Shown in pieces: positions 1,143-27,792 of a DNA stretch of 40,486 nt. The notes under the pieces were generated by a model. It saw nothing but the letters and a program-made list of their open reading frames with translations. It had not been told where the DNA came from and made no database searches. Every line of letters starts with the position of its first letter. The first letter of the stretch is position 1. The position numbers and the translations under genes were made by a program. This stretch comes from a virus (taxonomy: Duplodnaviria > Heunggongvirae > Uroviricota > Caudoviricetes). The stretch lies in IMG/VR virus record IMGVR_UViG_2526164661_000012; one strand, given 5' to 3'.

Positions 1143-1631
1143 TTATCTTTCTACTTCCCAGCGTAGAGATTGCATTAACATAGCATAAATATTGAACAGG
1201 AAAGTTTTTAAAGTTAATACAAGGAACACTGCACTGCTTCCTACGAGTATATATAGTATTTGAACTCCAACAACTTTAGTGCAATGAGAAAACATTAAGG
1301 CTCTGAGTAATTTTGTAGCCAATCCATTTTCTTGCCCGAAAAGAAGGACTAAAAGATAGATAACAGACCAAAATATGAAATATATAAATACTCTCATAAA
1401 TACGCCATAAACATATTTTAAGTAACTTATCCCGTATAATGGATGCTTATACTCCATTAATGAAAGGAAAAGTTCAGGTTTATTTATGGTTGCAAATATT
1501 GTAAATCCAGTAATTAAAAAACCTAATGTTGTTGTAGTGAATCCGAATACTAAAGGTGTCCATTGTCTAATAGATGAAATTAACTCTGGTGATGAAGATA
1601 GACAAAAAGCATTAATAGATAATAATATCAC
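1143..1631 (-). CDS. Hypothetical multi-pass membrane protein (lysogeny-operon cargo)
   Basis: 162-aa ORF in AT-rich DNA; several hydrophobic segments (LVFGFTTTTLGFLITGFTIFATI, IYFIFWSVIYLLVLLF, ILYILVGSSAVFLVLTL); same strand as cI and int. Confidence 0.55.
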   Translation of the reverse strand: MILLSINAFCLSSSPELISSIRQWTPLVFGFTTTTLGFLITGFTIFATINKPELFLSLMEYKHPLYGISYLKYVYGVFMRVFIYFIFWSVIYLLVLLFGQENGLATKLLRALMFSHCTKVVGVQILYILVGSSAVFLVLTLKTFLFNIYAMLMQSLRWEVER

Positions 1632-1748
1632 TAATAATAATGTGAAATAAAAGTCAAATGAATTGACCTTTATTTTTTAGTTAATTTGTAAACATCATGC
1701 AAAGATCGCTCTTTGGTCAGATCTTCTGGGTTGAATGTATATTTCATA

Positions 1749-2213
1749 CTATAGCCACCTAGAAATTATTGATGTTAACTTGGAAAAAATTTTAGTATAA
1801 TCTTCACGTTCTGGAATAATAATATTTCCTGCATCCTTTAATTCTGTGAATGCAGAATACGCCTCTTGAGCAGCTCTTTCCAAATCAGAACTAAGTTGTG
1901 GCCTTGATGCTTTTAGAGTAAAACTATCATTATTCCCTGATAGCCTTGCTCCGTGTTCATCTTTACCACTTATAATTACTTTAGAGTTGGCCATTCGGGT
2001 TGCACTTGTTGTTTTTTGAATGACGGCCTCAGAATTTAAACCATCTTCATTTTTATTTGTGTATACTAATTGAGCTTTACTACTATTAAGTTCTTCTTTT
2101 TCTTGTTCAATTTTCCTCCAGAAGCCATCAAGAGATATATTTTCACTATTTGTTGGCAATAACTCAATTGATAATCTATTAACAACAGAAAAGAGTTCAA
2201 CAAAATTGCTCAA
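1749..2213 (-). CDS. Hypothetical protein (lysogeny-operon cargo)
   Basis: 154-aa ORF in AT-rich DNA, co-oriented with cI/int; no recognisable motif. Confidence 0.5.
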   Translation of the reverse strand: MSNFVELFSVVNRLSIELLPTNSENISLDGFWRKIEQEKEELNSSKAQLVYTNKNEDGLNSEAVIQKTTSATRMANSKVIISGKDEHGARLSGNNDSFTLKASRPQLSSDLERAAQEAYSAFTELKDAGNIIIPEREDYTKIFSKLTSIISRWL

Positions 2214-2257
2214 TGATCTTGGGTCTGTTAAGGGGGTAACCCGTAATTTGGGGGCTC

Positions 2258-2797
2258 CTAGTTTACGATAAATATCTTTTTTATACAGTCGATCAATGTA
2301 TGATTTTTTCTTTCTAATTCTTTTATTTTTTTTACTTCGTAATCCACAAAAGAATTATATCGCTGTGCAAGGCAATACTTGCTAGTATTTTCAAATTCTT
2401 CTAGGGTAGGGGCTCCAGAAACCTCTTTGCAAAGCATTAATCTGTGCTCATTAAGCATAAGAATAAAAATAGAGCTGGGGTGACTTTCTAGCGTCCTGTG
2501 ATCTCGAATTAATTGACCATCTTGAAATATTTGATCTCGTTTAAATATGGTCTTTTTTATAATGCGGCCACACAATGCAATTGTTGGAACTATAGGACCA
2601 ATAAAATCTGAATCTGTAGTATCTAACGTAATAATTTTTGTGTCAGTAAAGAAATATTCTGTATCTTTAAATTTTCTAACGTATTTTTGTGCGAAAAATG
2701 AAGGAAAAACAATGCAATCAAAAGCATCTAAGAGAACTTTGTCCTCTCCAAAATTTAAGGTATAGTTTGCAAATTCAATAGTTTTCGTAAAGCTCAT
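2258..2797 (-). CDS. Hypothetical protein (lysogeny-operon cargo)
   Basis: 179-aa ORF starting 2 nt after the stop of the repressor gene (2800), implying co-transcription; AT-rich; no recognisable motif. Confidence 0.55.
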   Translation of the reverse strand: MSFTKTIEFANYTLNFGEDKVLLDAFDCIVFPSFFAQKYVRKFKDTEYFFTDTKIITLDTTDSDFIGPIVPTIALCGRIIKKTIFKRDQIFQDGQLIRDHRTLESHPSSIFILMLNEHRLMLCKEVSGAPTLEEFENTSKYCLAQRYNSFVDYEVKKIKELERKNHTLIDCIKKIFIVN

Positions 2798-2799
2798 TG

Positions 2800-3741
2800 T
2801 TAAACCCTTTTTCTAATTATTCCTTTAACTTTATTATTAAATTCCAAATCTTCTTTATCGCATTCAAAGCTATATTTTGTGTTTTCAACGCGGATGCGAT
2901 TGTTTGGAAGTTTAAATATGTCTCTAAAAGTAAATTCTCCGTTAATAGATACTAACCATAGACCATCGCTAAGATACTCCTCTTTGCTAATGATATATGA
3001 ATCATTTGCGGAATTAACTATATAGGGATGTTTTAAATTTTGAGGTAAAATTTCGCTCGAAACGATTAATTCTCTTTGATCAGTAAGTTTGCCGTCACGT
3101 AGATCATAGCAGTCTAATGTAAGCAACCCACTTAGCTTTGTTTGATTGGAATGCCCCTTACCAAAAGATAACCACTCGAGAGACACTCCTGTTTCTAAAC
3201 AGCATTGGATGATCCAGTCTGCCGGAAAAATGTCTCGCATGTATCGTGTAGCTAATGTGCTTTTTGAGATACCAAGGTGATCGGCTAAGGCTTGGCGCGT
3301 TTTGTAACCGTAAGCCTTAACAATTCGCTCTATTGCTGCTTTACCCCCTCGAGTGAAATCCATGTGGTTTTCATTATCGAACTTTATCGTGGGGGTGTGA
3401 ACTTCATTGCAAAATTCATCTGCAGACTGTTTTTCAGCATGCCGTTCTGGCGAAGGAGCTGGCACTCCTTCTTCAGCATCTAAACCAAATGCTAACCATT
3501 CGATTGATGCGCCAGTTTCCATTGAACATATAACAACCCAATCAGCAGGGAAGGTATCGCGTGCATATCTGTTAGCCATTGTACTTTGTGAAATACCAAG
3601 GTGGTTACAGAATGCTTGGCGTGATTTGAAACCATAGGCCATGAGTATTCTCTCAATGACTTTTTGCCCTCCTCGATTCTGCATGACCATGGCTTTCAGA
3701 TGATCTTCAATATGGCGAAATGTGATTTTATTAGTTGACAT
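2800..3741 (-). CDS. cI: CI-type immunity repressor with tandemly duplicated HTH domain and S24/LexA-like C-terminal domain
   Basis: 313 aa; two homologous HTH repeats (GGQKVIERILMAYGFKSRQAFCNHLGISQSTMANRYARDTFPADWVVICSMETGASIEWLAFG vs GGKAAIERIVKAYGYKTRQALADHLGISKSTLATRYMRDIFPADWIIQCCLETGVSLEWLSFG); C-terminus aligns by eye to the LexA S24 domain (SINGEFTFRDIFKLPNNRIRVEN vs ARIDDEVTVKRLKKQGNKVELLPEN); divergent from apl/cII and co-oriented with int. Confidence 0.7.
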   Translation of the reverse strand: MSTNKITFRHIEDHLKAMVMQNRGGQKVIERILMAYGFKSRQAFCNHLGISQSTMANRYARDTFPADWVVICSMETGASIEWLAFGLDAEEGVPAPSPERHAEKQSADEFCNEVHTPTIKFDNENHMDFTRGGKAAIERIVKAYGYKTRQALADHLGISKSTLATRYMRDIFPADWIIQCCLETGVSLEWLSFGKGHSNQTKLSGLLTLDCYDLRDGKLTDQRELIVSSEILPQNLKHPYIVNSANDSYIISKEEYLSDGLWLVSINGEFTFRDIFKLPNNRIRVENTKYSFECDKEDLEFNNKVKGIIRKRV

Positions 3742-19074: not shown

Positions 19075-19277
19075 TGAAAGTGCGTGCGCATCAGTATGAC
19101 ACGGTGGACGCGCTTTGCTGGCGTCATTACGGGCGCACGCAGGGTGTCACGGAGCAGGTACTGAAGGCAAATCCGGGGCTTGCCGAATATGGCCCCTTTT
19201 TACCTCACGGGCTGCAGGTGGAGCTGCCGGACATTCCGACCACCACCACCGTGCAGACCGTCCAGCTATGGGACTGA
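19074..19277 (+). CDS. X: Tail protein gpX-like
   Basis: 67 aa (MKVRAHQYDTVDALCWRHYGRTQGV...), matching size and recalled sequence of P2 X. Confidence 0.8.
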   Translation: MKVRAHQYDTVDALCWRHYGRTQGVTEQVLKANPGLAEYGPFLPHGLQVELPDIPTTTTVQTVQLWD

Positions 19278-19280
19278 ATT

Positions 19281-19496
19281 ATGACGCTTGAGCGAATCAG
19301 CGCCTTTATCACGTACTGCATCGCCGTTGTGCTGGCCTGGCTGGGCGATTTGTCCATCAAGGATGCCTCAACGCTGGGCGGCCTGATGATTGGTGTGCTG
19401 ATGCTGGCTATCAACTGGTACTACAAACACAAAGCCTACCAGCTTTTGCGCGACGGGCAGATCTCGCGGGAGGACTATGAATCCATCAATCGTTAA
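19281..19496 (+). CDS. Putative holin (two transmembrane segments, pinholin-like size)
   Basis: 71 aa with two hydrophobic helices (ISAFITYCIAVVLAWLG; LGGLMIGVLMLAINWYY), immediately upstream of endolysin. Confidence 0.6.
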   Translation: MTLERISAFITYCIAVVLAWLGDLSIKDASTLGGLMIGVLMLAINWYYKHKAYQLLRDGQISREDYESINR

Positions 19497-19992
19497 ACGC
19501 TGCCTTGTCGGGGCCGTGCTGGCTATTGCTGCCACGCTGCCGGGTTTTCAGCAGCTTCACACCTCCGTGGAAGGGCTGAAACTGATTGCCGATTACGAAG
19601 GTTGTCGTCTGCAGCCGTATCAGTGCAGCGCGGGTGTCTGGACCGACGGCATTGGTAATACATCGGGCGTCATCCCGGGCAAAACCATTACGGAACGACA
19701 GGCAGCGGAAGGGCTGATCTCCAACATGCTGCGTGTGGAGCGGGCGCTGGAAAGGTGTGTGAAGCAACAGCCGCCGCAGAAGGTGTATGACGCGGTGGTG
19801 TCGTTTGCCTTCAACGTGGGAACGGGCAATGCCTGCAGTTCCACGCTGGTGAAATTGCTCAATCAGCGGCGCTGGGCGGATGCGTGCCGACAGTTGCCGC
19901 GCTGGGTTTATGTGAAAGGTGTTTTTAATCAGGGGCTGGATAACCGCCGTGCGCGGGAGATGGCCTGGTGCCTTAAAGGAGCTGGACTATGA
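19477..19992 (+). CDS. Endolysin, T4-lysozyme-like with N-terminal signal-anchor-release-like segment
   Basis: 171 aa; Ala/Gly-rich weakly hydrophobic N-terminus (CLVGAVLAIAATLPGF) followed by E...D...T catalytic region (DYEGCRLQPYQCSAGVWTDGIGNT), resembling phage 21 R endolysin. Confidence 0.85.
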   Translation: MNPSIVKRCLVGAVLAIAATLPGFQQLHTSVEGLKLIADYEGCRLQPYQCSAGVWTDGIGNTSGVIPGKTITERQAAEGLISNMLRVERALERCVKQQPPQKVYDAVVSFAFNVGTGNACSSTLVKLLNQRRWADACRQLPRWVYVKGVFNQGLDNRRAREMAWCLKGAGL

Positions 19993-20417
19993 CGCGTGCG
20001 CTGGCAGTAGTGGTGGCGCTGGCACTCGTTGCGCTGGGCTGGCAGTCGTGGCGGCTTAACAGCGCCAGCCACACCATCGAAACGCAGCACGCGGCGCTGA
20101 AAAGTAAAGCGCAGGAACTGACGAAGAAAAACAGCCAGCTTATCAGCCTGTCCATTCTGACTGAAACCAATAACCGGGAGCAGGCGCGGCTCTATGCCGA
20201 AGCAGAACAGACCAGCGCACTGCTGAGACAACGACAACACCGGATCGAGGAACTGAAACGTGAGAACGAGGATTTACGCCGCTGGGCTGATACTCCTTTG
20301 CCTGCTGACATTATCCGGCTGCGGGAACGTCCGGCACTCACCGGAGGTACAGCTTACCGTCAGTGGTTGTCCGCGAGTGACGCCGTGTCGGCTGGATCAG
20401 GCAACGCCGCGCACTAA
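19989..20417 (+). CDS. Inner-membrane spanin (LysB/Rz-like)
   Basis: 142 aa, N-terminal transmembrane helix then coiled-coil-like region; ATGA overlap with endolysin stop. Confidence 0.7.
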   Translation: MTRALAVVVALALVALGWQSWRLNSASHTIETQHAALKSKAQELTKKNSQLISLSILTETNNREQARLYAEAEQTSALLRQRQHRIEELKRENEDLRRWADTPLPADIIRLRERPALTGGTAYRQWLSASDAVSAGSGNAAH

Positions 20418-20550
20418 CGGTGATCTGAACGCGTTGCTGGATGAAACGGAGGCCGCCTGGGCGGTCTGTGCAGACAAAGTGGACATGATTATTGCGTGTC
20501 AGGAGCGAAACAGTGAACAAACCACAATCCCTGCGCCACGTCCTCAATAA
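20260..20550 (+). CDS. Outer-membrane lipoprotein spanin (LysC/Rz1-like)
   Basis: 96 aa with lipobox LTLSGC; starts inside LysB in another frame. Confidence 0.7.
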   Translation: MRTRIYAAGLILLCLLTLSGCGNVRHSPEVQLTVSGCPRVTPCRLDQATPRTNGDLNALLDETEAAWAVCADKVDMIIACQERNSEQTTIPAPRPQ

Positions 20551-20944
20551 AGCGGTGCCTTATGTCCGCAATAACCCGGACAAACTGCATCTGTTTGTGG
20601 ATAACGGTTCGCTGGTTGCCACGGGGGCCAGTTCCATGTCGTGGGAGTACCGTTACACCCTGAACGCGGTGATTGAGGATTTCAGCGGCGACCAGAATCT
20701 GCTGATGGCCCCGGTTTTGCTGTGGCTGCGGGATAACCAGCCCGATGCCATCAATAACCCGGCGTTACGGGAAAAACTATTTACCTTTGAGGTGGATATT
20801 CTGCGCAACGATGTCTGTGATATCAGCCTTAACCTGCAACTGACGGAACGTGTGCTGGTCAGCACTGACGGCAGTGTGTCGAGCGTTGAAGCTGTAGCAG
20901 AACCCGATGAACCTGAAGAAATGTGGACGGTGAAACGTGGCTGA
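20513..20944 (+). CDS. R: Tail completion protein gpR-like
   Basis: Track ORF from TTG at 20492; preferred GTG at 20513 preceded by AGGAGC; resembles P2 R by recall. Confidence 0.75.
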   Translation: MNKPQSLRHVLNKAVPYVRNNPDKLHLFVDNGSLVATGASSMSWEYRYTLNAVIEDFSGDQNLLMAPVLLWLRDNQPDAINNPALREKLFTFEVDILRNDVCDISLNLQLTERVLVSTDGSVSSVEAVAEPDEPEEMWTVKRG

Positions 20945-21383
20945 ACTGCAGAAGGTGGACGACTGGCTTAGTGCCTTACTGGCGAATCTGGAACCAGTCG
21001 CAAGAAGCCGCATGATGCGCCAGCTGGCGCAGGAACTGCGCCGGACACAGCAGCAGAATATCAGGATGCAGCGCAATCCAGATGGCAGCAGTTATGAACC
21101 GCGCAAGGTCACGGCGCGCAGTAAAAAAGGCCGCATCAAACGTCAGATGTTTGCAAAGCTGCGCACCACCAAATACCTGAAAACCGCCGCCAGCGCCGAC
21201 TCTGCCAGCGTACAGTTTGAAAGTAAGGTGCAGCGCATTGCCCGCGTTCACCATTATGGCCTGCGCGATCGCGTCAGCCGCAAAGGACCGGAAGTGCGTT
21301 ACGCAGAGCGTCGTTTGTTGGGTCTTAATGGTGAGTCTTACGTTCTAACTCTTGATATATTGAATAGATTCCTTCTGTCTTGA
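20937..21383 (+). CDS. S: Tail completion protein gpS-like
   Basis: 148 aa, GTG start overlapping R stop; MAELQKVDDWL... resembles P2 S by recall. Confidence 0.75.
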   Translation: MAELQKVDDWLSALLANLEPVARSRMMRQLAQELRRTQQQNIRMQRNPDGSSYEPRKVTARSKKGRIKRQMFAKLRTTKYLKTAASADSASVQFESKVQRIARVHHYGLRDRVSRKGPEVRYAERRLLGLNGESYVLTLDILNRFLLS

Positions 21384-21843
21384 ATTCACCATATGCCCAA
21401 TGAATTGCATTTTTTTGTTCAGTCAGAATATATTTCCTAACTTTTTTAGAATAGTGAATGGTCAGTATAAAACCCAAAGAAATCCATAATAGAATAAATA
21501 TGGTTGTTGGGGCAAAGGAATAGATAAAGAATTTGTCTTTAACGAAATTCTTGACTTCTTCATCAATGTAAGCATTCCCTTCATCAGTGGTTAGTAGTTT
21601 ACAAAGAATTTCTTTATGCTCGATAGTTAATGATTTGTACTTCTCTGTACTGGCAGAGGATGACTCTTCGCAATCATCCTTTGATATTTCCCAATCAGGA
21701 GTGGTTAATATTGTAGCTGCAGTCGCCAGTTTTTTTGACATATAAAATGATTCACCGGATTTTATCCAATAAAGCAATGTGCTATTTGGTGGGGTTCTAA
21801 TGGCTTGGATGAAAACTGGACCAAAAATATAAATTGCACACAA
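21325..21843 (-). CDS. Hypothetical membrane protein in AT-rich insert between S and V
   Basis: 172-aa ORF (true start may be the internal Met MSKKLATAAT...); one strong hydrophobic helix (FFIYSFAPTTIFILLWISLGFILTI); opposite strand to the late operon. Confidence 0.4.
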   Translation of the reverse strand: MCAIYIFGPVFIQAIRTPPNSTLLYWIKSGESFYMSKKLATAATILTTPDWEISKDDCEESSSASTEKYKSLTIEHKEILCKLLTTDEGNAYIDEEVKNFVKDKFFIYSFAPTTIFILLWISLGFILTIHYSKKVRKYILTEQKNAIHWAYGEFKTEGIYSIYQELERKTHH

Positions 21844-21905
21844 AAAAAGAAGTGAAAAGAGAACCGTGATTGATTTTTCAGCCCATGTGATAGTAGGCAG
21901 CCTTT

Positions 21906-22130
21906 TTAATGATATTCGTATAAGAAAAAATTTAATATAAACGCAGGTATTCCTGATTTTTTCAAAATTACATCATGAGATTTTCTATATTTGAATAGTG
22001 CTCTTATAACTATCGTCACCAAAGTTATAACAGCTCCAATAATGGAAATCCATGCGGCAAGTGCCGCTGCCGGGGTGTTTAAAAATTCAGCATTAAATAT
22101 ATTAGAACTTATTGGATTCATAACACTCAT
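21906..22130 (-). CDS. Hypothetical small membrane protein in AT-rich insert
   Basis: 74-aa ORF with one transmembrane helix (AAALAAWISIIGAVITLVTIVIRALF); same orientation as 21325..21843. Confidence 0.35.
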   Translation of the reverse strand: MSVMNPISSNIFNAEFLNTPAAALAAWISIIGAVITLVTIVIRALFKYRKSHDVILKKSGIPAFILNFFLYEYH

Positions 22131-22169
22131 TTATCCACCTATTGGTTGTTTTTTATCCTTTTATCAATT

Positions 22170-22187
22170 TGTACCATCGATACCACA
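22170..22187. promoter_or_regulatory. TGT-N12-ACA dyad upstream of V (possible Ogr site)
   Basis: TGTACCATCGATACCACA centred about 55 bp upstream of the V start codon, which is closer than expected for a promoter with a normal leader. Confidence 0.3.
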
Positions 22188-22233
22188 ATTTGCAAGAAGT
22201 TATAAACAAGTTTTCAGCTGTCATCATATATCT

Positions 22234-22812
22234 ATGAACGCACAACTAACCGAAATCATGCGCCTTATCACCAATCTGATCCGCATAGGTGTAGTCACCG
22301 AAGTGGACCGGGAAAACTGGCTTTGTCGGGTGAAAACGGGCGACCTTGAAACCAACTGGATTAACTGGCTGACGCTGCGCGCGGGTAATGCCCGCACATG
22401 GTGGCGACCATCGGAAGGTGAGCAGGTGGTACTGCTGAGTCTGGGCGGCAATCTGGAAACAGCCTTTGCTTTGCCCGCCATCTATTCTAATCAGTTTGCA
22501 CCGCCGTCGCAGTCGGTGGACGCCTGTGTGACAGAACATCCTGATGGTGGCTGGTTTGAATACGAACCCACTACCGGGCGCTGGTATGTCAGGGGCATCA
22601 AATCCATGGTCATTGAGGCTGCCGACAACATCACCCTGAAAACCAGTGAGTTTGTGCTGGAGGCTGACCGCACGCGTATTAACAGCGAAGTAGTGATCAA
22701 TGGTGGCGTTACCCAGGGCGGCGGTGCAATGAGTTCTAACGGAATTGTGGTTGATGCACATCAGCATACTGGCGTCCTGAAAGGCGGCGACACAACCGGA
22801 GGCCCGGTATGA
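22234..22812 (+). CDS. V: Baseplate spike/assembly protein gpV-like
   Basis: Internal Met of track ORF (MNAQLTEIMRLITNLIRIGVVTEVD...); similarity to P2 V by recall. Confidence 0.8.
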   Translation: MNAQLTEIMRLITNLIRIGVVTEVDRENWLCRVKTGDLETNWINWLTLRAGNARTWWRPSEGEQVVLLSLGGNLETAFALPAIYSNQFAPPSQSVDACVTEHPDGGWFEYEPTTGRWYVRGIKSMVIEAADNITLKTSEFVLEADRTRINSEVVINGGVTQGGGAMSSNGIVVDAHQHTGVLKGGDTTGGPV

Positions 22813-23168
22813 CGCTTTATAGCGGGATGAACAATACCAGCGGCAAAGTCATTACTGATATTGACCATCTGCGCCAGTCGGTGCGGGACATTCTGCTGAC
22901 GCCGCAGGGTAGCCGCATTGCCCGTCGGGAATATGGTTCCCTGCTGTCGGCACTGATAGATCAGCCACAAAATCCGGCGTTACGCCTGCAGGTCATGTCG
23001 GCAGTGTATGTGGCGCTGAGTCGCTGGGAGCCACGGCTGACGCTGGATTCCATCACCATCAACAGCCATTTTGACGGTTCAATGGTGGTGGAGCTGAGCG
23101 GGCGGCGTAATAACGGTGTGCCTGTTTCCCTTTCCGTATCAACAGGAGCAGAGAATGGCAGTGATTGA
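22809..23168 (+). CDS. W: Baseplate wedge protein gpW-like
   Basis: 119 aa following V. Confidence 0.85.
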   Translation: MTLYSGMNNTSGKVITDIDHLRQSVRDILLTPQGSRIARREYGSLLSALIDQPQNPALRLQVMSAVYVALSRWEPRLTLDSITINSHFDGSMVVELSGRRNNGVPVSLSVSTGAENGSD

Positions 23169-24063
23169 CCTTTCGCAGTTGCCTGCGCCGCAGATTGTGG
23201 ATGTGCCGGACTTTGAGACGCTGCTTGCCGAACGCAAGGCCGAATTTGTGGCGCTTCATCCGAAAGATGAGCAGGAAGCAGTGATCCGCACGCTGGAACT
23301 GGAATCTGAACCCGTTACCAAATTGTTGCAGGAGAACGCTTATCGTGAGTTGCTTCTGCGCCAGCGCATTAACGAAGCCGCGCAGGCGGTGATGGTGGCT
23401 TACGCGATGGGCGGCGATCTTGACCAGCTCGCTGCTAACTACAACGTGAAACGCCTGACGGTGACACCTGCTGATGATGACGCTGTACCGCCCGTTGCGG
23501 CTGTGATGGAAAGTGATGAAGCGTTACGCCTGCGTGTGCCTGCAGCCTTTGAAGGGCTTTCTGTTGCGGGGCCAACTGCCGCTTATGAGTTTCATGCACG
23601 AAGCGCCGACGGTCGGGTGGCGGATGCCAGTGCAACCAGTCCGGCACCTGCAGAGGTGGTACTGACTGTCCTTAGCCGCGAAGGCGACGGAACAGCAGAA
23701 AAAGACTTGCTGGATGTGGTGGAGAACGCCCTGAACAGTGAGAACGTCCGCCCGGTGGCTGACCGTCTGACGGTTCGCAGCGCAGAAATCATCCCGTACC
23801 GCGTGGAAGCCACCATTTTTCTTTATCCGGGACCGGAAGCAGAGCCGGTAATGGCAGCGGCAAAAGCCAGCCTGCAGAAGTACATCGCCAGTCAGACGCG
23901 GCTTGGTCGGGATATTCGCCGTAGTGCCATTTTTGCCGCGCTGCATGTTGAGGGGGTTCAACGTGTGGAGCTGACTTCACCGCTGGCTGATGTGGTCCTG
24001 AACAAAACACAGGCCGCCTCATGTACGCAGTGGAGCGTAACCAACGGAGGAACGGATGAATAG
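23155..24063 (+). CDS. J: Baseplate protein gpJ-like
   Basis: 302 aa from internal Met (MAVIDLSQLPAPQ...), same length as recalled for P2 J. Confidence 0.85.
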   Translation: MAVIDLSQLPAPQIVDVPDFETLLAERKAEFVALHPKDEQEAVIRTLELESEPVTKLLQENAYRELLLRQRINEAAQAVMVAYAMGGDLDQLAANYNVKRLTVTPADDDAVPPVAAVMESDEALRLRVPAAFEGLSVAGPTAAYEFHARSADGRVADASATSPAPAEVVLTVLSREGDGTAEKDLLDVVENALNSENVRPVADRLTVRSAEIIPYRVEATIFLYPGPEAEPVMAAAKASLQKYIASQTRLGRDIRRSAIFAALHVEGVQRVELTSPLADVVLNKTQAASCTQWSVTNGGTDE

Positions 24064-24661
24064 TCTGCTGCCACCAGGTTCAACGCTACTGGAGCGCCGA
24101 CTGGCGCAGACCTGTAGCGGGATTTCTGATCTGCAGGTGCCGCTGCGTGACTTGTGGAATCCGGCAACCTGTCCGGTCAGTTTCCTGCCTTATCTCGCTT
24201 GGGCGTTCTCTGTGGATCGCTGGGACGAGGGCTGGACTGAAAGCGTCAAACGTCAGGTGGTGAAGGATGCTTTTTATATTCATCAGAATAAAGGAACCAC
24301 CAGTGCCGTGCGGCGGGTGGTGGAACCGTTCGGATTCCTGATCCGCATTATTGAGTGGTGGCAGACCGGCGAAACACCGGGCACGTTTCGCCTGGATATC
24401 GGCGTGCAGGATCAGGGCATCACTGAAGATACCTATCTGGAACTTGAGCGACTGATAAGCGATGCCAAACCATGTAGCCGTCACATGATCGGCATGTCCA
24501 TCAATCTGCAGACCAGCGGCCCGCATTGGGTGGGAGCCGCCAGCTATCTTGGCGAAGAAATCACGATCTATCCGTATATCAACGAAACAATTATTTCCGG
24601 CGGCACCGCGCATGAAGGCGGGGCGGTCCATGTTATTGACACAATGAGAGTGAATCCATGA
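24056..24661 (+). CDS. I: Baseplate protein gpI-like
   Basis: 201 aa following J. Confidence 0.85.
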   Translation: MNSLLPPGSTLLERRLAQTCSGISDLQVPLRDLWNPATCPVSFLPYLAWAFSVDRWDEGWTESVKRQVVKDAFYIHQNKGTTSAVRRVVEPFGFLIRIIEWWQTGETPGTFRLDIGVQDQGITEDTYLELERLISDAKPCSRHMIGMSINLQTSGPHWVGAASYLGEEITIYPYINETIISGGTAHEGGAVHVIDTMRVNP

Positions 24662-26049
24662 GCACAAAATTTTATACCCTGCTGACGGATATTGGCGCGG
24701 CGAAACTTGCCAGCGCCGCCGCGCTCGGTGTGCCTTTAAAAATTACCCATATGGCGGTCGGCGATGGCGGCGGAACATTACCAACGCCGGACGCAAAGCA
24801 GACAGCACTGGTAAATGAGAAACGCCGGGCTGCGCTGAATATGCTCTATATCGACCCGCAGAACAGCAGCCAGATTATTGCTGAACAGGTGATCCCTGAA
24901 AACGAGGGCGGTTGGTGGATACGTGAAGTGGGCTTGTTTGATGAGTCCGGGGCATTGATTGCCGTGGGTAACTGCCCGGAAAGCTATAAGCCGCAACTGG
25001 CTGAAGGCAGTGGGCGTACCCAGACCGTGCGCATGGTGCTGATTACCAGCAGTACGGGCAATATCATCCTGAAAATCGACCCTGCTGTAGTGCTGGCAAC
25101 CCGCAAGTATGTGGATGACAAGGCACTGGAGCTGAAGGTGTACGTGGATGACCTGATAGCAAAACATCTTGCCGCACTGGACCCGCATTCACAGTATGCA
25201 CCCAAAGAAAGTCCGACATTTACCGGAACCCCCAAAGCGCCAACGCCAGCGGCGGGGAATAATACCACTCAGCTTGCGACCACCGCATTTGTTCAGGCGG
25301 CACTGACGGCCCTGATTAATGGTGCGCCAGCCACGCTGGACACGCTGAAAGAAATAGCCGCAGCCATTAACAATGACCCGAAATTCAGTACCACCATTAA
25401 CAATGCGCTGGCACTGAAAGCGCCGCTGTCGAGTCCGGCACTCACCGGAACGCCAACAGCCCCCACGGCGGCGCAGTCGGTCAACAATACACAGATTGCC
25501 ACTACGGCTTTTGTGAAATCGGCGATTGCGGCAATGGTGGGTTCTGCACCTGCGGCACTGGATACACTGAACGAACTGGCGGCGGCACTGGGGAATGATC
25601 CGAACTTTGCCACGACAATGCTTAATGCGCTGGCAGGTAAACAACCGCTGGACAATACGCTGACTAATTTGAGTGGAAAGGATGTAGCTGGTCTTCTCAC
25701 ATACCTTGGTTTGGGAGAAGCCAGATATGTCATTCAGCGAGGAGCTAATGTCAATGGTGCATGGATACGCTGGTCAGATGGTGCAATAGAAGTATTTGGA
25801 ACTGGTGGTTCCAATGATAATGGGCTGGCTAAAGTCGTTTATCCAATTGCACTACCTAAGCTTTCACGTTTTATCAGCATAGCGGAAAGAATAAGAACAG
25901 ATTACGAGGCCACACCTAATAACGTTCACGTTTCAATGATCGTGGATGACCAGGTCAGTAATACAGGTTTTTATGTCCGCTGCCAGATGTACGACGGAAG
26001 ACCATCAACAAGTGCTTTTTCCTGGAGAGTTTATTGTGCGCCTGTTTAA
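24658..26049 (+). CDS. H: Tail fibre protein gpH-like; C-terminal ~110 codons lie inside the invertible segment
   Basis: 463 aa; N-terminus MSTKFYTLLTDIGAAKLA...; repeated ...NTQIATTAFV...LDTL.E.AAA..NDP.F.TT..NALA.K.PL blocks; crossover site within the gene at 25694..25719. Confidence 0.85.
   Translation: MSTKFYTLLTDIGAAKLASAAALGVPLKITHMAVGDGGGTLPTPDAKQTALVNEKRRAALNMLYIDPQNSSQIIAEQVIPENEGGWWIREVGLFDESGALIAVGNCPESYKPQLAEGSGRTQTVRMVLITSSTGNIILKIDPAVVLATRKYVDDKALELKVYVDDLIAKHLAALDPHSQYAPKESPTFTGTPKAPTPAAGNNTTQLATTAFVQAALTALINGAPATLDTLKEIAAAINNDPKFSTTINNALALKAPLSSPALTGTPTAPTAAQSVNNTQIATTAFVKSAIAAMVGSAPAALDTLNELAAALGNDPNFATTMLNALAGKQPLDNTLTNLSGKDVAGLLTYLGLGEARYVIQRGANVNGAWIRWSDGAIEVFGTGGSNDNGLAKVVYPIALPKLSRFISIAERIRTDYEATPNNVHVSMIVDDQVSNTGFYVRCQMYDGRPSTSAFSWRVYCAPV
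25694..25719. repeat. DNA-invertase crossover site (left), TTCTCACATACCTTGGTTTGGGAGAA
   Basis: 26-bp site resembling gix/hix/cix half-site consensus (TTnTCnnAAACC); inverted relative to site at 27148..27173; encodes GLGEA in both fibre frames. Confidence 0.55.
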
Positions 26050-26233
26050 TCCTGTTACTTTGACTGAAGTAATCCCCGGTCTTCATGACGTGACCGGGGC
26101 TGTGGAATTACCAGAAGATAACTGGTTTTTTACTGCATCTGAAATCCCTGAAGGAATGGAAATATCTGTTAACGAGAAGGGCGAACCCATTCTGATTGAG
26201 ATTAAACCATCTCAGGTGGAACTGGCCAGATAA
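26036..26233 (+). CDS. Putative short tail-fibre assembly/chaperone protein for the currently expressed fibre
   Basis: 65 aa from GTG overlapping the H stop; position equals P2 G / Mu U; no sequence similarity established. Confidence 0.4.
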   Translation: MRLFNPVTLTEVIPGLHDVTGAVELPEDNWFFTASEIPEGMEISVNEKGEPILIEIKPSQVELAR

Positions 26234-26468
26234 CCCCCGGCGCGGTGCTGGTATCTGCTTCCATCACCGCGTCGATATTACCAACATCATATTCAGTCAT
26301 TTCCGGTTCCGGTGGTGCTATAAACTCTCCGTCAGAATAGAACCAACCGACGCCTGCATCTATATGATCAACATTTATAATTTCGCAATTAGAGAATAAA
26401 TCACCCTCTCCATCCCAGATAATAATATTTTTCACCACGCCATGTTCAATCAGAGCAAAATTACTCAT
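26202..26468 (-). CDS. Tail-fibre assembly protein-like (alternative, inverted orientation)
   Basis: 88 aa ending ...EADTSTAPGVIWPVPPEMV, resembling the conserved Tfa C-terminus (DTSTAPDIEWP); 3' end overlaps the plus-strand tfa convergently. Confidence 0.5.
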   Translation of the reverse strand: MSNFALIEHGVVKNIIIWDGEGDLFSNCEIINVDHIDAGVGWFYSDGEFIAPPEPEMTEYDVGNIDAVMEADTSTAPGVIWPVPPEMV

Positions 26469-27147
26469 CAGGCATACTCCTCAACAATAACTATTCCCGG
26501 GGCACCGTCACCTCCCGATTGAGCCTCACTTCCAGCAGGTGCGCAGGCTCCGCCTCCGCCAGCACCAAAGCCCTCAGCTTTACCACCACCACGTCCTCTG
26601 AATGATGAAGAACTTGCACCACCTATACCGCCTGAACCTAATGGTGTATCCCCCCCGGTACCACCTGCTACAGCTTTAACAGAGATAACCATTGCTCCTG
26701 GTGTTTTTGCACTACAGCGAAATGCTCTTAGTACAGTGCCGGACGATGTCGGACTGGCACCCCATGAAATACCCTGAATATATGATGTGTTTGCAGATGC
26801 TCCCCCCGCGCCACCGCCTGTACCACCAGGTGCAGTTATCATGGAACCGAAATAAGTTGTGCCACCTTCACTACCTGAATTTCTTCCGGCTCCCCCCCTT
26901 TACCTGCAGCACCGATAATAACGTTGACTTCGAAATCATTATCAACCTCGAAAAATGCTTCAATAAATGCGCCGCTCAATCCAGCTCCGGCTGTTGCCTG
27001 CTGATTTTCTGTTGTTTCAGGAACCCCACCGCCGCCGCCGCCACCACCAGAGGCAATGACCCTTATCTTTTTTGTCCCTGGTGTTGGGATATATTTTCCA
27101 GAACTTTTAAAAATATTCGTGTTTAACAAACGACCAGAGAATCTGGC
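26468..27147 (-). pseudogene. Alternative tail-fibre C-terminal cassette (Gly-rich), split by a frameshift in a G7 run
   Basis: Track ORFs 26839..27201 and 26468..26842 are consecutive in different frames; frame at crossover site encodes GLGEA as in H; one extra G in the run (plus-strand C7 at 26892..26898) joins them. Confidence 0.5.
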
Positions 27148-27173
27148 TTCTCCCAAACCAACGTTTATGAAAA
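27148..27173. repeat. DNA-invertase crossover site (right), TTCTCCCAAACCAACGTTTATGAAAA
   Basis: Near-perfect inverted copy of the 25694..25719 site, about 55 bp upstream of the invertase start. Confidence 0.55.
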
Positions 27174-27228
27174 TGCAGAGATAACGGCTAACTGGCATCA
27201 TCCCCGGTTTTTATTCAGGGGATTGATC

Positions 27229-27792
27229 ATGCTTATTGGCTATGTACGCGTGTCAACAAATGACCAGAACACTGATTTGCAACGTAATGCACTGAACTGC
27301 GCGGGATGTGAGCGGATTTTTGAGGACAAAATCAGTGGCACTAAGTCCAACAGACCGGGGCTGAAAAAACTGCTCAGGACACTATCGGCAGGAGACACGC
27401 TGGTTGTCTGGAAGCTGGACAGGTTGGGGCGCAGTATGCGGCATCTTGTTACGTTGATAGAAGAGTTGCGCCAGCGAGGTGTGAATTTCCGAAGCCTGAC
27501 TGACAGTATTGATACCAGTACCCCAATGGGCCGTTTCTTTTTTCATGTCATGGGTGCCCTGGCTGAAATGGAACGCGAACTGATAGTTGAACGTACCAGG
27601 GCGGGGCTTGCTGCAGCTCGCGCCAAAGGCAGAGTAGGTGGACGCCGTCCTAAGTTGACTACCGAACAGTGGGCACAGATTGGACGCTTACTCGAGGCCG
27701 GAGAATCAAGACAGCGTATTGCACTGATTTTTGATGTGGGTGTTTCCACAATTTATAGAAAATTTCCGGCAAATAAGAGTAATGAATCGTAA
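27229..27792 (+). CDS. Serine DNA invertase, Hin/Gin/Pin/Cin family
   Basis: MLIGYVRVSTNDQNTDLQRN...VVWKLDRLGRSMRHL...FFHVMGALAEMERELI..., very close to recalled e14 Pin; track ORF starts at TTG 27223, ATG at 27229 preferred. Confidence 0.9.
   Translation: MLIGYVRVSTNDQNTDLQRNALNCAGCERIFEDKISGTKSNRPGLKKLLRTLSAGDTLVVWKLDRLGRSMRHLVTLIEELRQRGVNFRSLTDSIDTSTPMGRFFFHVMGALAEMERELIVERTRAGLAAARAKGRVGGRRPKLTTEQWAQIGRLLEAGESRQRIALIFDVGVSTIYRKFPANKSNES

Follow-up and report, generated by a model that had tools for sequence, protein, structure and literature searches.

The stretch of DNA analysed here, called the window in what follows (40,486 nucleotides (nt) of the IMG/VR virus record IMGVR_UViG_2526164661_000012), is a P2-like prophage adjoining the host gene ybjL (37867-39552), in which integrase, the CI repressor, genes A, Q, P, O, N, M and L, the lysis genes, R and S are followed by V, W, J, I, H, tail genes and D. 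Between S and V lies an AT-rich block (~21310-22233) with a guanine-plus-cytosine (GC) content of 0.30-0.36 versus 0.55-0.60 in its flanks (200-nt windows) and a mean of 0.33 across 21330-22233; from the S stop to the V start the distance is 850 nt, versus 68 nt in prophages with an empty junction. An earlier note, written from the letters of this DNA, had described such a block with two small minus-strand membrane-protein genes, and the GC profile and the S-V distance bear out the block itself. Both open reading frames (ORFs) exist on the minus strand, at 21325-21843 and 21906-22130, and the claim that such long ORFs exceed chance in AT-rich DNA is confirmed, the longest stop-free stretch of the block reaching 214 codons against 73 +/- 17, with a maximum of 171, in 2000 dinucleotide-preserving shuffles. 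A scan of the block against Rfam matched no family. The count of two genes did not survive: we are confident that the block is a single-gene cargo cassette of the DUF6216 family in the S-V slot, and that the apparent two ORFs arise from one missing base. The features of the locus are as follows.

20937-21383, plus strand: tail-completion gene S (PF05069, E 1.9e-38).
21325-22130, minus strand: DUF6216-family cargo gene of 268 codons with the missing base restored, read here as two fragments (identified by the BL21(DE3) coding sequence and PF19723).
21325-21915, minus strand: C-terminal fragment, native residues 71-268 (predicted helix 2, two-cysteine domain, helix 3 and cytoplasmic tail).
21906-22130, minus strand: N-terminal fragment, an ORF of 74 amino acids (aa) consisting of native residues 1-70, which cover predicted helix 1 and some of the cytoplasmic loop, followed by 4 residues out of frame.
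21925-21930: frameshift site, a run of six A (six T on the coding strand) that is seven A in relatives.
22131-22233: divergent intergenic region of 103 nt, from the DUF6216 start to the V start.
22135-22139, minus strand: Shine-Dalgarno-like GGTGG, 4 nt upstream of the DUF6216 ATG, read from the sequence.
22170-22187, plus strand: Ogr-type late-activator site of the promoter pV, TGT-N12-ACA.
22234-22812, plus strand: baseplate spike gene V (PF04717 and PF18946).

That there is one gene is most evident from the relatives of the block. Of 5,426 complete E. coli genomes, 110 have it at 95-99.8% identity and one more at 80-90%, 111 together; the carriers include E. coli B, REL606 and BL21 derivatives, whose annotation gives it as one 'DUF6216 family protein'. 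The BL21(DE3) counterpart is one 807-nt coding sequence (CDS) for WP_000115390.1 (268 aa), located between S and V on the opposite strand; the two blocks are 99.4% identical in DNA, and the sole gap in their alignment is the run at 21925-21930, A6 in the window and A7 in BL21. All 31 homologue clusters are 262-268 aa long, each with a precomputed PF19723 match, and each of the 16 loci inspected has the ORF intact. As given, the window sequence breaks the DUF6216 ORF at 21925-21930, so that no single ORF of ~230-300 aa results; the N-terminal piece supplies 70 residues of the 268-aa protein and the C-terminal piece 198. Against PF19723 the intact protein scores 44.5 bits and the 172-aa piece of the window 39.7 bits (gathering cut-off 27.3), and because the match spans only the C-terminal half (model positions 114-265), the protein belongs to a divergent branch of DUF6216. 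The comparison with related prophages at the S-V junction, which the earlier note had proposed as a check, thus finds the locus conserved, but as one unsplit gene in 109 of the 110 complete E. coli genomes with this segment.

Two genuine small membrane-protein genes, for example a toxin and antitoxin or a holin-like pair, would account for the two ORFs and for the hydrophobic helix in each, a feature that the earlier note had predicted and that hydropathy and the AlphaFold2 model both recover; the 74-aa piece even has a weak, sub-threshold match to a holin family (17.2 bits versus a cut-off of 28.8). This match is mere hydrophobic-helix resemblance, however, and the 74-aa and 172-aa pieces are collinear with a single ORF in every relative, which also leaves the two-component or toxin-antitoxin reading unsupported. 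Moreover, the 172-aa piece lacks an independent start: it is the downstream part of the C-terminal fragment counted from an internal TTG within helix 2, and the Prokaryotic Genome Annotation Pipeline (PGAP) resorted to ATT in the one genome that shares the allele. We consider a true gene pair extremely improbable, and a reading of the block as a pair of new small genes is not worth pursuing, being an artefact on an already catalogued gene. The element itself is already known, being a member of Pfam DUF6216 at the orf30 locus familiar from P2, and E. coli B and BL21 have it.

Whether the missing base is a sequencing artefact or a real mutation can be judged from the rest of the window. The best match found when a near-identical complete E. 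coli genome was sought for an assembly check reached only 97%, and in place of a complete genome the quality of the assembly was judged against the IMG/VR contig IMGVR_UViG_2627853795_000006, which over the 6,001 nt surrounding the gene departs from the window in this base only. Over ~27 kb, the two differ by 2 substitutions (12791 and 14799) and by one-base gaps at six places, where it is always the window that lacks the base and always a homopolymer that is shortened (1673, T7 to T6; 2326, T9 to T8; 4748, A7 to A6; 5684, A6 to A5; 21925-30, A7 to A6; 26892, C8 to C7). Indels that outnumber substitutions, all in one direction and all in homopolymers, are the signature of homopolymer under-calling and not of mutation. 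Read from these alignments, the split of DUF6216 is most likely an assembly artefact and, given that under-calling appears to run throughout the window assembly, the gene is most probably intact in the organism. When the runs at 1673 and 2326 are restored, three ORF pieces between int and CI become two longer ORFs; other short or split ORFs, notably in the AT-rich parts of the window, need like caution.

The opposite view is that the frameshift is real, the cargo gene having been recently inactivated to a pseudogene that leaves at most a 74-aa peptide with one helix. The 6-base run is, after all, present in the window as given, and an IS66-family insertion in the prophage indicates that some decay is in progress. 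Three further points weigh against the artefact: the identical allele, annotated as two CDS, occurs in NZ_CP148423.1; genuine homopolymer frameshifts are conceivable, for instance in a mismatch-repair-deficient strain; and the sequencing-error view rests on a single near-identical contig. Set against these are the six homopolymer deletions for 2 substitutions, at least three of the deletions breaking an ORF, and the rarity of the 6-base allele. The run is six bases long in 1 of the 110 complete E. coli genomes with the segment (NZ_CP148423.1, where PGAP calls the two CDS), the remaining 109 differing from the 76-nt segment of the window and, among the matches listed, 11 of 11 having the extra base. 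Pseudogenes of defence cargo are also reported to be rare in P2-like elements (PMC13586616, NAR 2026), which again weighs against a real frameshift, and overall we find it unlikely.

A more elaborate scenario would make the 6-base allele the 'off' or low state of a slippage switch, with -1 ribosomal frameshifting on U UUU UUC, or transcriptional slippage, restoring the full length. The heptamer does lie in the correct frame in this allele, a -1 slip would yield the exact wild-type sequence, and the allele is seen on two different backbones. Yet the T-run is not kept at the nucleotide level among other alleles (TTC TTC, TTT TTC and others), seven bases are short for a contingency tract, and the five other homopolymer deletions of the window point to error and not to a switch, making this scenario highly improbable. 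A phase-variable contingency gene was considered and rejected, the tract not being conserved and the off allele being found in 1 of 110 genomes.

The intact protein that we take to be encoded here has three membrane segments by hydropathy (~19-48, 84-113 and 201-229). Its charges (K+R/D+E) are 9/2 in loop 47-87, 8/5 in tail 227-268 and 11/16 in the central part 113-200; a basic loop and a basic tail around an acidic centre would, by the positive-inside rule, place the N-terminus and the central domain in the periplasm. An AlphaFold2 model built on 31 homologues (predicted local distance difference test (pLDDT) 79, predicted template modelling score (pTM) 0.63) runs from helix 1 through a pair of short helices in the loop to helix 2, and from there through four short strands and three short helices to a long helix that includes helix 3. 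The predicted topology is therefore N-terminus out, helix 1 (~20-46), a cytoplasmic loop, helix 2 (~84-112), a periplasmic domain of four strands plus helices (~113-182), helix 3 (~201-228) and a basic cytoplasmic tail; the basic cytoplasmic loop carries a conserved KKSG-PAF-LN-F motif. The family is small: a profile search of 1.84 billion representative proteins returned just 49 relatives (E <= 0.001), mostly of 232-296 aa, and the only columns invariant across the family, down to 15-20% identity, are C154 and C177, with F129 and W147 nearly so. Two invariant cysteines in the central domain fit a structural disulfide in a periplasmic domain, and in the modelled protein C154 and C177 are probably bonded to each other. 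Taken together, the product is predicted to be an integral inner-membrane protein of prophage origin, as expected of superinfection-exclusion proteins.

The slot in which the gene resides has been recognized in P2, where it holds orf30 (AAD03281.1, 261 aa, minus strand, 'nonessential') between S and V. The S-V site is counted, along with old/tin and Z/fun, among three locations of horizontally acquired genes in P2-like phages (PMC3091744; PMC6823313), and hotspot surveys resolve old/tin, Z/fun and int-CI without singling out S-V (Rousset 2022, PMC9122126; NAR 2026, PMC13586616). With the joined R-S and V-W flanks as a query, the backbone was detected in 1,056 E. coli genomes, in 851 of them at >= 80% coverage. 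The slot is empty in most of the sampled related prophages (S and V then being 68 nt apart and the flanking query segments 131 nt), and DUF6216, found in 111 E. coli genomes, is the most common occupant seen in it, the others being TIR, DUF2971, DUF6602 and FRG proteins and unnamed proteins. Each of six alternative occupants that we inspected is a single gene (266-384 aa), on the minus strand in five cases, and four match PADLOC models: TIR (PDC-S66/SpbK-like), DUF2971 (PDC-S31), FRG (PDC-S15) and DUF6602 (PD-DExK/NucC-type nuclease). For the two unnamed occupants (288 and 384 aa) there was no PADLOC match and no Pfam family above threshold. The gene in the window belongs to the P2 orf30 cargo slot in lying between S and V of a P2-like prophage, in having a GC content below that of its flanks and in being dispensable. 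Its reading as horizontally acquired, AT-rich cargo is supported, and of the earlier note the AT-rich insert, the orientation against the late operon and the membrane-protein product hold, with one gene in place of two. The P2-like region S-DUF6216-V is also found in NZ_CP148585.1 and NZ_CP148400.1, records of ~55 kb annotated as plasmids, which may be a P2-like element kept, or assembled, as an episome.

The association of DUF6216 with this slot is ancient enough to have outlasted much sequence divergence. In 24 of the compared loci (genomes and viral contigs), V, S or both flank DUF6216 in the same arrangement, with V starting ~103 nt upstream and divergently (within a few nt of 103 in the Enterobacterales loci retrieved) and the end of S overlapping the end of DUF6216 by 47-59 nt. 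The V-DUF6216-S arrangement is kept at 47-50% protein identity in loci L014 and L032, where S and V are 82-87% identical; in L033, of the same identity class, V is kept and P/Q stand in place of S. Even at ~20% identity, in the complete P2-like prophage of locus L043, the gene lies ~90 nt from V and overlaps S by 33 nt. From these comparisons, DUF6216 is to all appearance an old resident of the S-V slot and not a chance insertion. Its ratio of nonsynonymous to synonymous divergence (dN/dS) is 0.21-0.35 between diverged alleles, versus 0.03-0.26 for R, S, V, W and J, indicating purifying selection on a gene that nonetheless evolves faster than its neighbours. The cassette also moves between backbones, as argued by loci L018 and L028, in which the synonymous divergence (dS) is 0.05 for the cassette, 0.90 for S and 0.68 for V, and by the closely related backbones L029 and L032, which hold alleles respectively 80% and 50% identical to the query protein. 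Such movement has been described generally for P2 defence cargo (PMC13586616).

The gene can also survive the loss of its prophage. Intact DUF6216 ORFs lie just downstream of ybjL, among no phage genes or mere fragments of them, in Citrobacter sedlakii, a Scandinavium sp. and a metagenome-assembled genome (MAG) of an uncultured Enterobacteriaceae, and two more such orphans beside ybjL were found in the genomes that carry P0039 and P0043 at 31-35% identity, one with a GC content of 0.45, nearer to its flanks than the window copy. In remnants from Serratia, Citrobacter youngae and Klebsiella aerogenes, DUF6216 sits beside fragments of S, R or V, and the BL21 prophage is itself a remnant in which DUF6216 is intact. 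Retention of the gene while structural genes decay argues for a benefit to the host.

The boundaries of the cassette suggest that more than the gene is exchanged. Over its last ~17 codons S is AT-rich, and its end shares 59 nt (21325-21383) with the 3' end of DUF6216, an overlap that the earlier note had seen and that is retained in distant loci. Here the S C-terminus, GLNGESYVLTLDILNRFLLS, matches in length and residue pattern that of empty-junction prophages, GVNDDVEAMTRDMILQWLAG, though it is recoded AT-rich. On the other side, nine matches to TGT-N12-ACA occur in the window, four of them at the positions expected of P2 late promoters (15798, 15856, 22170 and 30392), and P2 has an annotated activator site at the place equivalent to 22170-22187, of which the 103-nt divergent region bears its own version. 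A recoded S end together with an own late-activator site indicates that the exchanged module consists of the cargo gene along with the 3' end of S and with pV. The 103-nt region must hold both the cargo promoter and the late promoter pV. Where the late O-operon and the cargo gene converge (S ends at 21383, DUF6216 at 21325), no terminator of the intrinsic type was predicted behind S.

Evidence on expression comes from a close relative. By chromatin immunoprecipitation sequencing (ChIP-seq), a 2026 preprint on BL21-AI reports three H-NS peaks in the prophage, including one on DUF6216; these prophage regions are reported to be up-regulated in an hns/stpA double mutant. The suggestion in the earlier note of independent, possibly lysogen-time expression fits this binding and derepression of the 99.4%-identical BL21-AI copy, with the reservation that the gene is largely silenced in ordinary culture. 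As for the marks of H-NS-silenced cargo, AT-richness is found in the window, and binding and derepression are reported for the BL21-AI locus only. We hypothesize that the DUF6216 protein is a lysogenic-conversion protein that the prophage would express from a promoter belonging to the gene itself, at a level held down by H-NS, and that would shield the host envelope against other phages much as superinfection-exclusion proteins do, possibly by a block of genome entry at the inner membrane. Such an anti-phage role at the envelope is our best single hypothesis, one that we favour tentatively and in which we infer both function and mechanism. It builds on the envelope location and outward-facing disulfide domain, the own-promoter orientation against the late genes, H-NS silencing, the company kept in the slot and orphan survival, and also on the fact that all characterised P2 cargo genes are phage-exclusion genes. 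The slot contents of other prophages make superinfection exclusion or defence a reasonable and plausible guess; the protein may alternatively be an abortive-infection-type membrane effector.

A number of results weigh against this hypothesis. Guilt by association at a hotspot is weak evidence of function, and the literature on the family or on WP_000115390.1 yielded no functional study of any DUF6216 protein. In PADLOC-DB v2, no family matched the DUF6216 protein at E <= 1 (P2 Orf30 is also unmatched), PHROGs, like NCBIfam, held no family for it, and searches of 50,697 phage records (tblastn and megablast) gave no match. A search of BFVD gave no informative structural relative, and only generic helical hairpins were retrieved from the PDB. 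The validated exclusion protein of e14, YmfE/Kunado, has no sequence or profile similarity to it (hhalign probability 0.5%). Lastly, a sigma-70 consensus scan of the 103-nt region found no promoter, and a consensus and intrinsic-terminator scan found no terminator after S, though P2 has an annotated one between S and orf30.

The intact cargo could then serve in some other way, either in the host envelope (stress, colonisation, colicin or tailocin resistance) or in the phage, and we regard this as a real possibility, if still a doubtful one. No defence model matches DUF6216, orphan copies persist in prophage-free chromosomes, which would imply a host benefit of any kind, and P2 orf30 at the same slot is still 'nonessential, function unknown'. 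On the other hand, the other occupants of the slot are mostly defence candidates, and the known P2 cargo genes old, tin and Z/fun are all phage-exclusion genes, which counts against a function unrelated to phage defence. A role in virion assembly is unlikely because most sampled related prophages are without any gene in the slot.

Extending the anti-phage hypothesis, it is a real, if doubtful, possibility that DUF6216, perhaps with P2 Orf30 as a very distant relative, forms an uncharacterised family of prophage inner-membrane anti-phage proteins of the superinfection-exclusion type, long-term residents of the S-V slot that co-evolved with the overlapping S end and the shared pV region, are silenced by H-NS and were repeatedly domesticated beside ybjL, as the one gene to outlast decayed prophages, in several Enterobacterales genera. 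If true, E. coli BL21 would hold a silent copy of an unrecognised defence gene. DUF6216 is in any case a good candidate for a prophage envelope defence gene, and one that is readily testable in a standard laboratory strain, BL21.

Several other features of the window were recorded. Between an integrase-like ORF (1-1131) and CI lies a very AT-rich block (1143-2797, minus strand, GC 0.29-0.33) in which the window has three ORFs, of 162, 154 and 179 aa; in the corrected contig L048 it consists of two adjacent ORFs of 201 and 349 aa (1143-1748 and 1750-2799), for which there was no Pfam or PADLOC match. The block coincides with the cargo hotspot that P2-like phages have between int and CI, so the pair is possibly a two-gene system that has escaped recognition. 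The neighbouring CI-repressor ORF (2800-3741, minus strand, 313 aa) has two separate Phage_CI_repr helix-turn-helix matches in addition to the CI C-terminal domain, and either contains a duplicated N-terminal domain or is an over-long ORF call. The AT-rich A-Q ('old/tin') slot (GC ~0.32) holds a 360-aa ORF (11783-12865, plus strand) that matches only Peptidase_M48, and weakly (E 1.6e-5), with nothing in PADLOC. The copy of the prophage in E. coli B contains retron Eco1. A serine invertase of the Hin/Gin type (27223-27792) adjoins a segment (~25706-27161) that is oppositely oriented in the near-identical contig; window positions 26738-27161 align inverted relative to 17328-25726, an invertible tail-fibre segment caught in two states. 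The IS66-family element lies in the tail-fibre/Z-fun region (28295-30246, minus strand) and comprises a 378-aa transposase with DDE_Tnp_IS66 and two small upstream ORFs; the near-identical short-read contig ends near it.

How the cassette compares with known systems depends on the relative considered. The closest, WP_000115390.1 of E. coli B/BL21(DE3), shares its S-V position, orientation and 99.4% DNA identity, and differs in that the window copy is one base short and reads as two ORFs. P2 Orf30 is alike in slot, strand and near-equal size, in being AT-rich cargo and in having two invariant cysteines, and a second AlphaFold model predicts the same order of elements (helix 1 and cytoplasmic helices, then helix 2 and four strands, then a short helix bearing the first cysteine, a helix bearing the second, and a long helix with helix 3). 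It differs in that P2 has a terminator between S and orf30, where the genes overlap here. In sequence, BLASTP between DUF6216 and P2 Orf30 gives E 0.043, hhalign gives a probability of 0.2% when the close profile is used and of 29.6% (E 5.7e-4) when the wide one is, and hidden Markov model (HMM) scores fall within the range of decoys; searched against Pfam, P2 Orf30 has no DUF6216 match. The architecture being the same but the sequence similarity marginal, Orf30 is best regarded as a positional and architectural counterpart only.

Inner-membrane superinfection-exclusion proteins include P22 SieA, T4 Imm and HK97 gp15. To those of the e14 YmfE/Kunado type, the DUF6216 protein bears a likeness in kind only, as a small multi-pass inner-membrane protein, predicted in our case, encoded by AT-rich prophage cargo and expressed independently of the lytic genes; H-NS silencing is reported for both Kunado and the BL21 DUF6216 locus in the same 2026 preprint. 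Finally, the cargo hotspots of P2-like phages (old/tin, Z/fun and int-CI; PMC9122126, PMC13586616) share with the S-V slot a variable single-gene position between core genes, low GC content, fast swapping between backbones and defence-like occupants.

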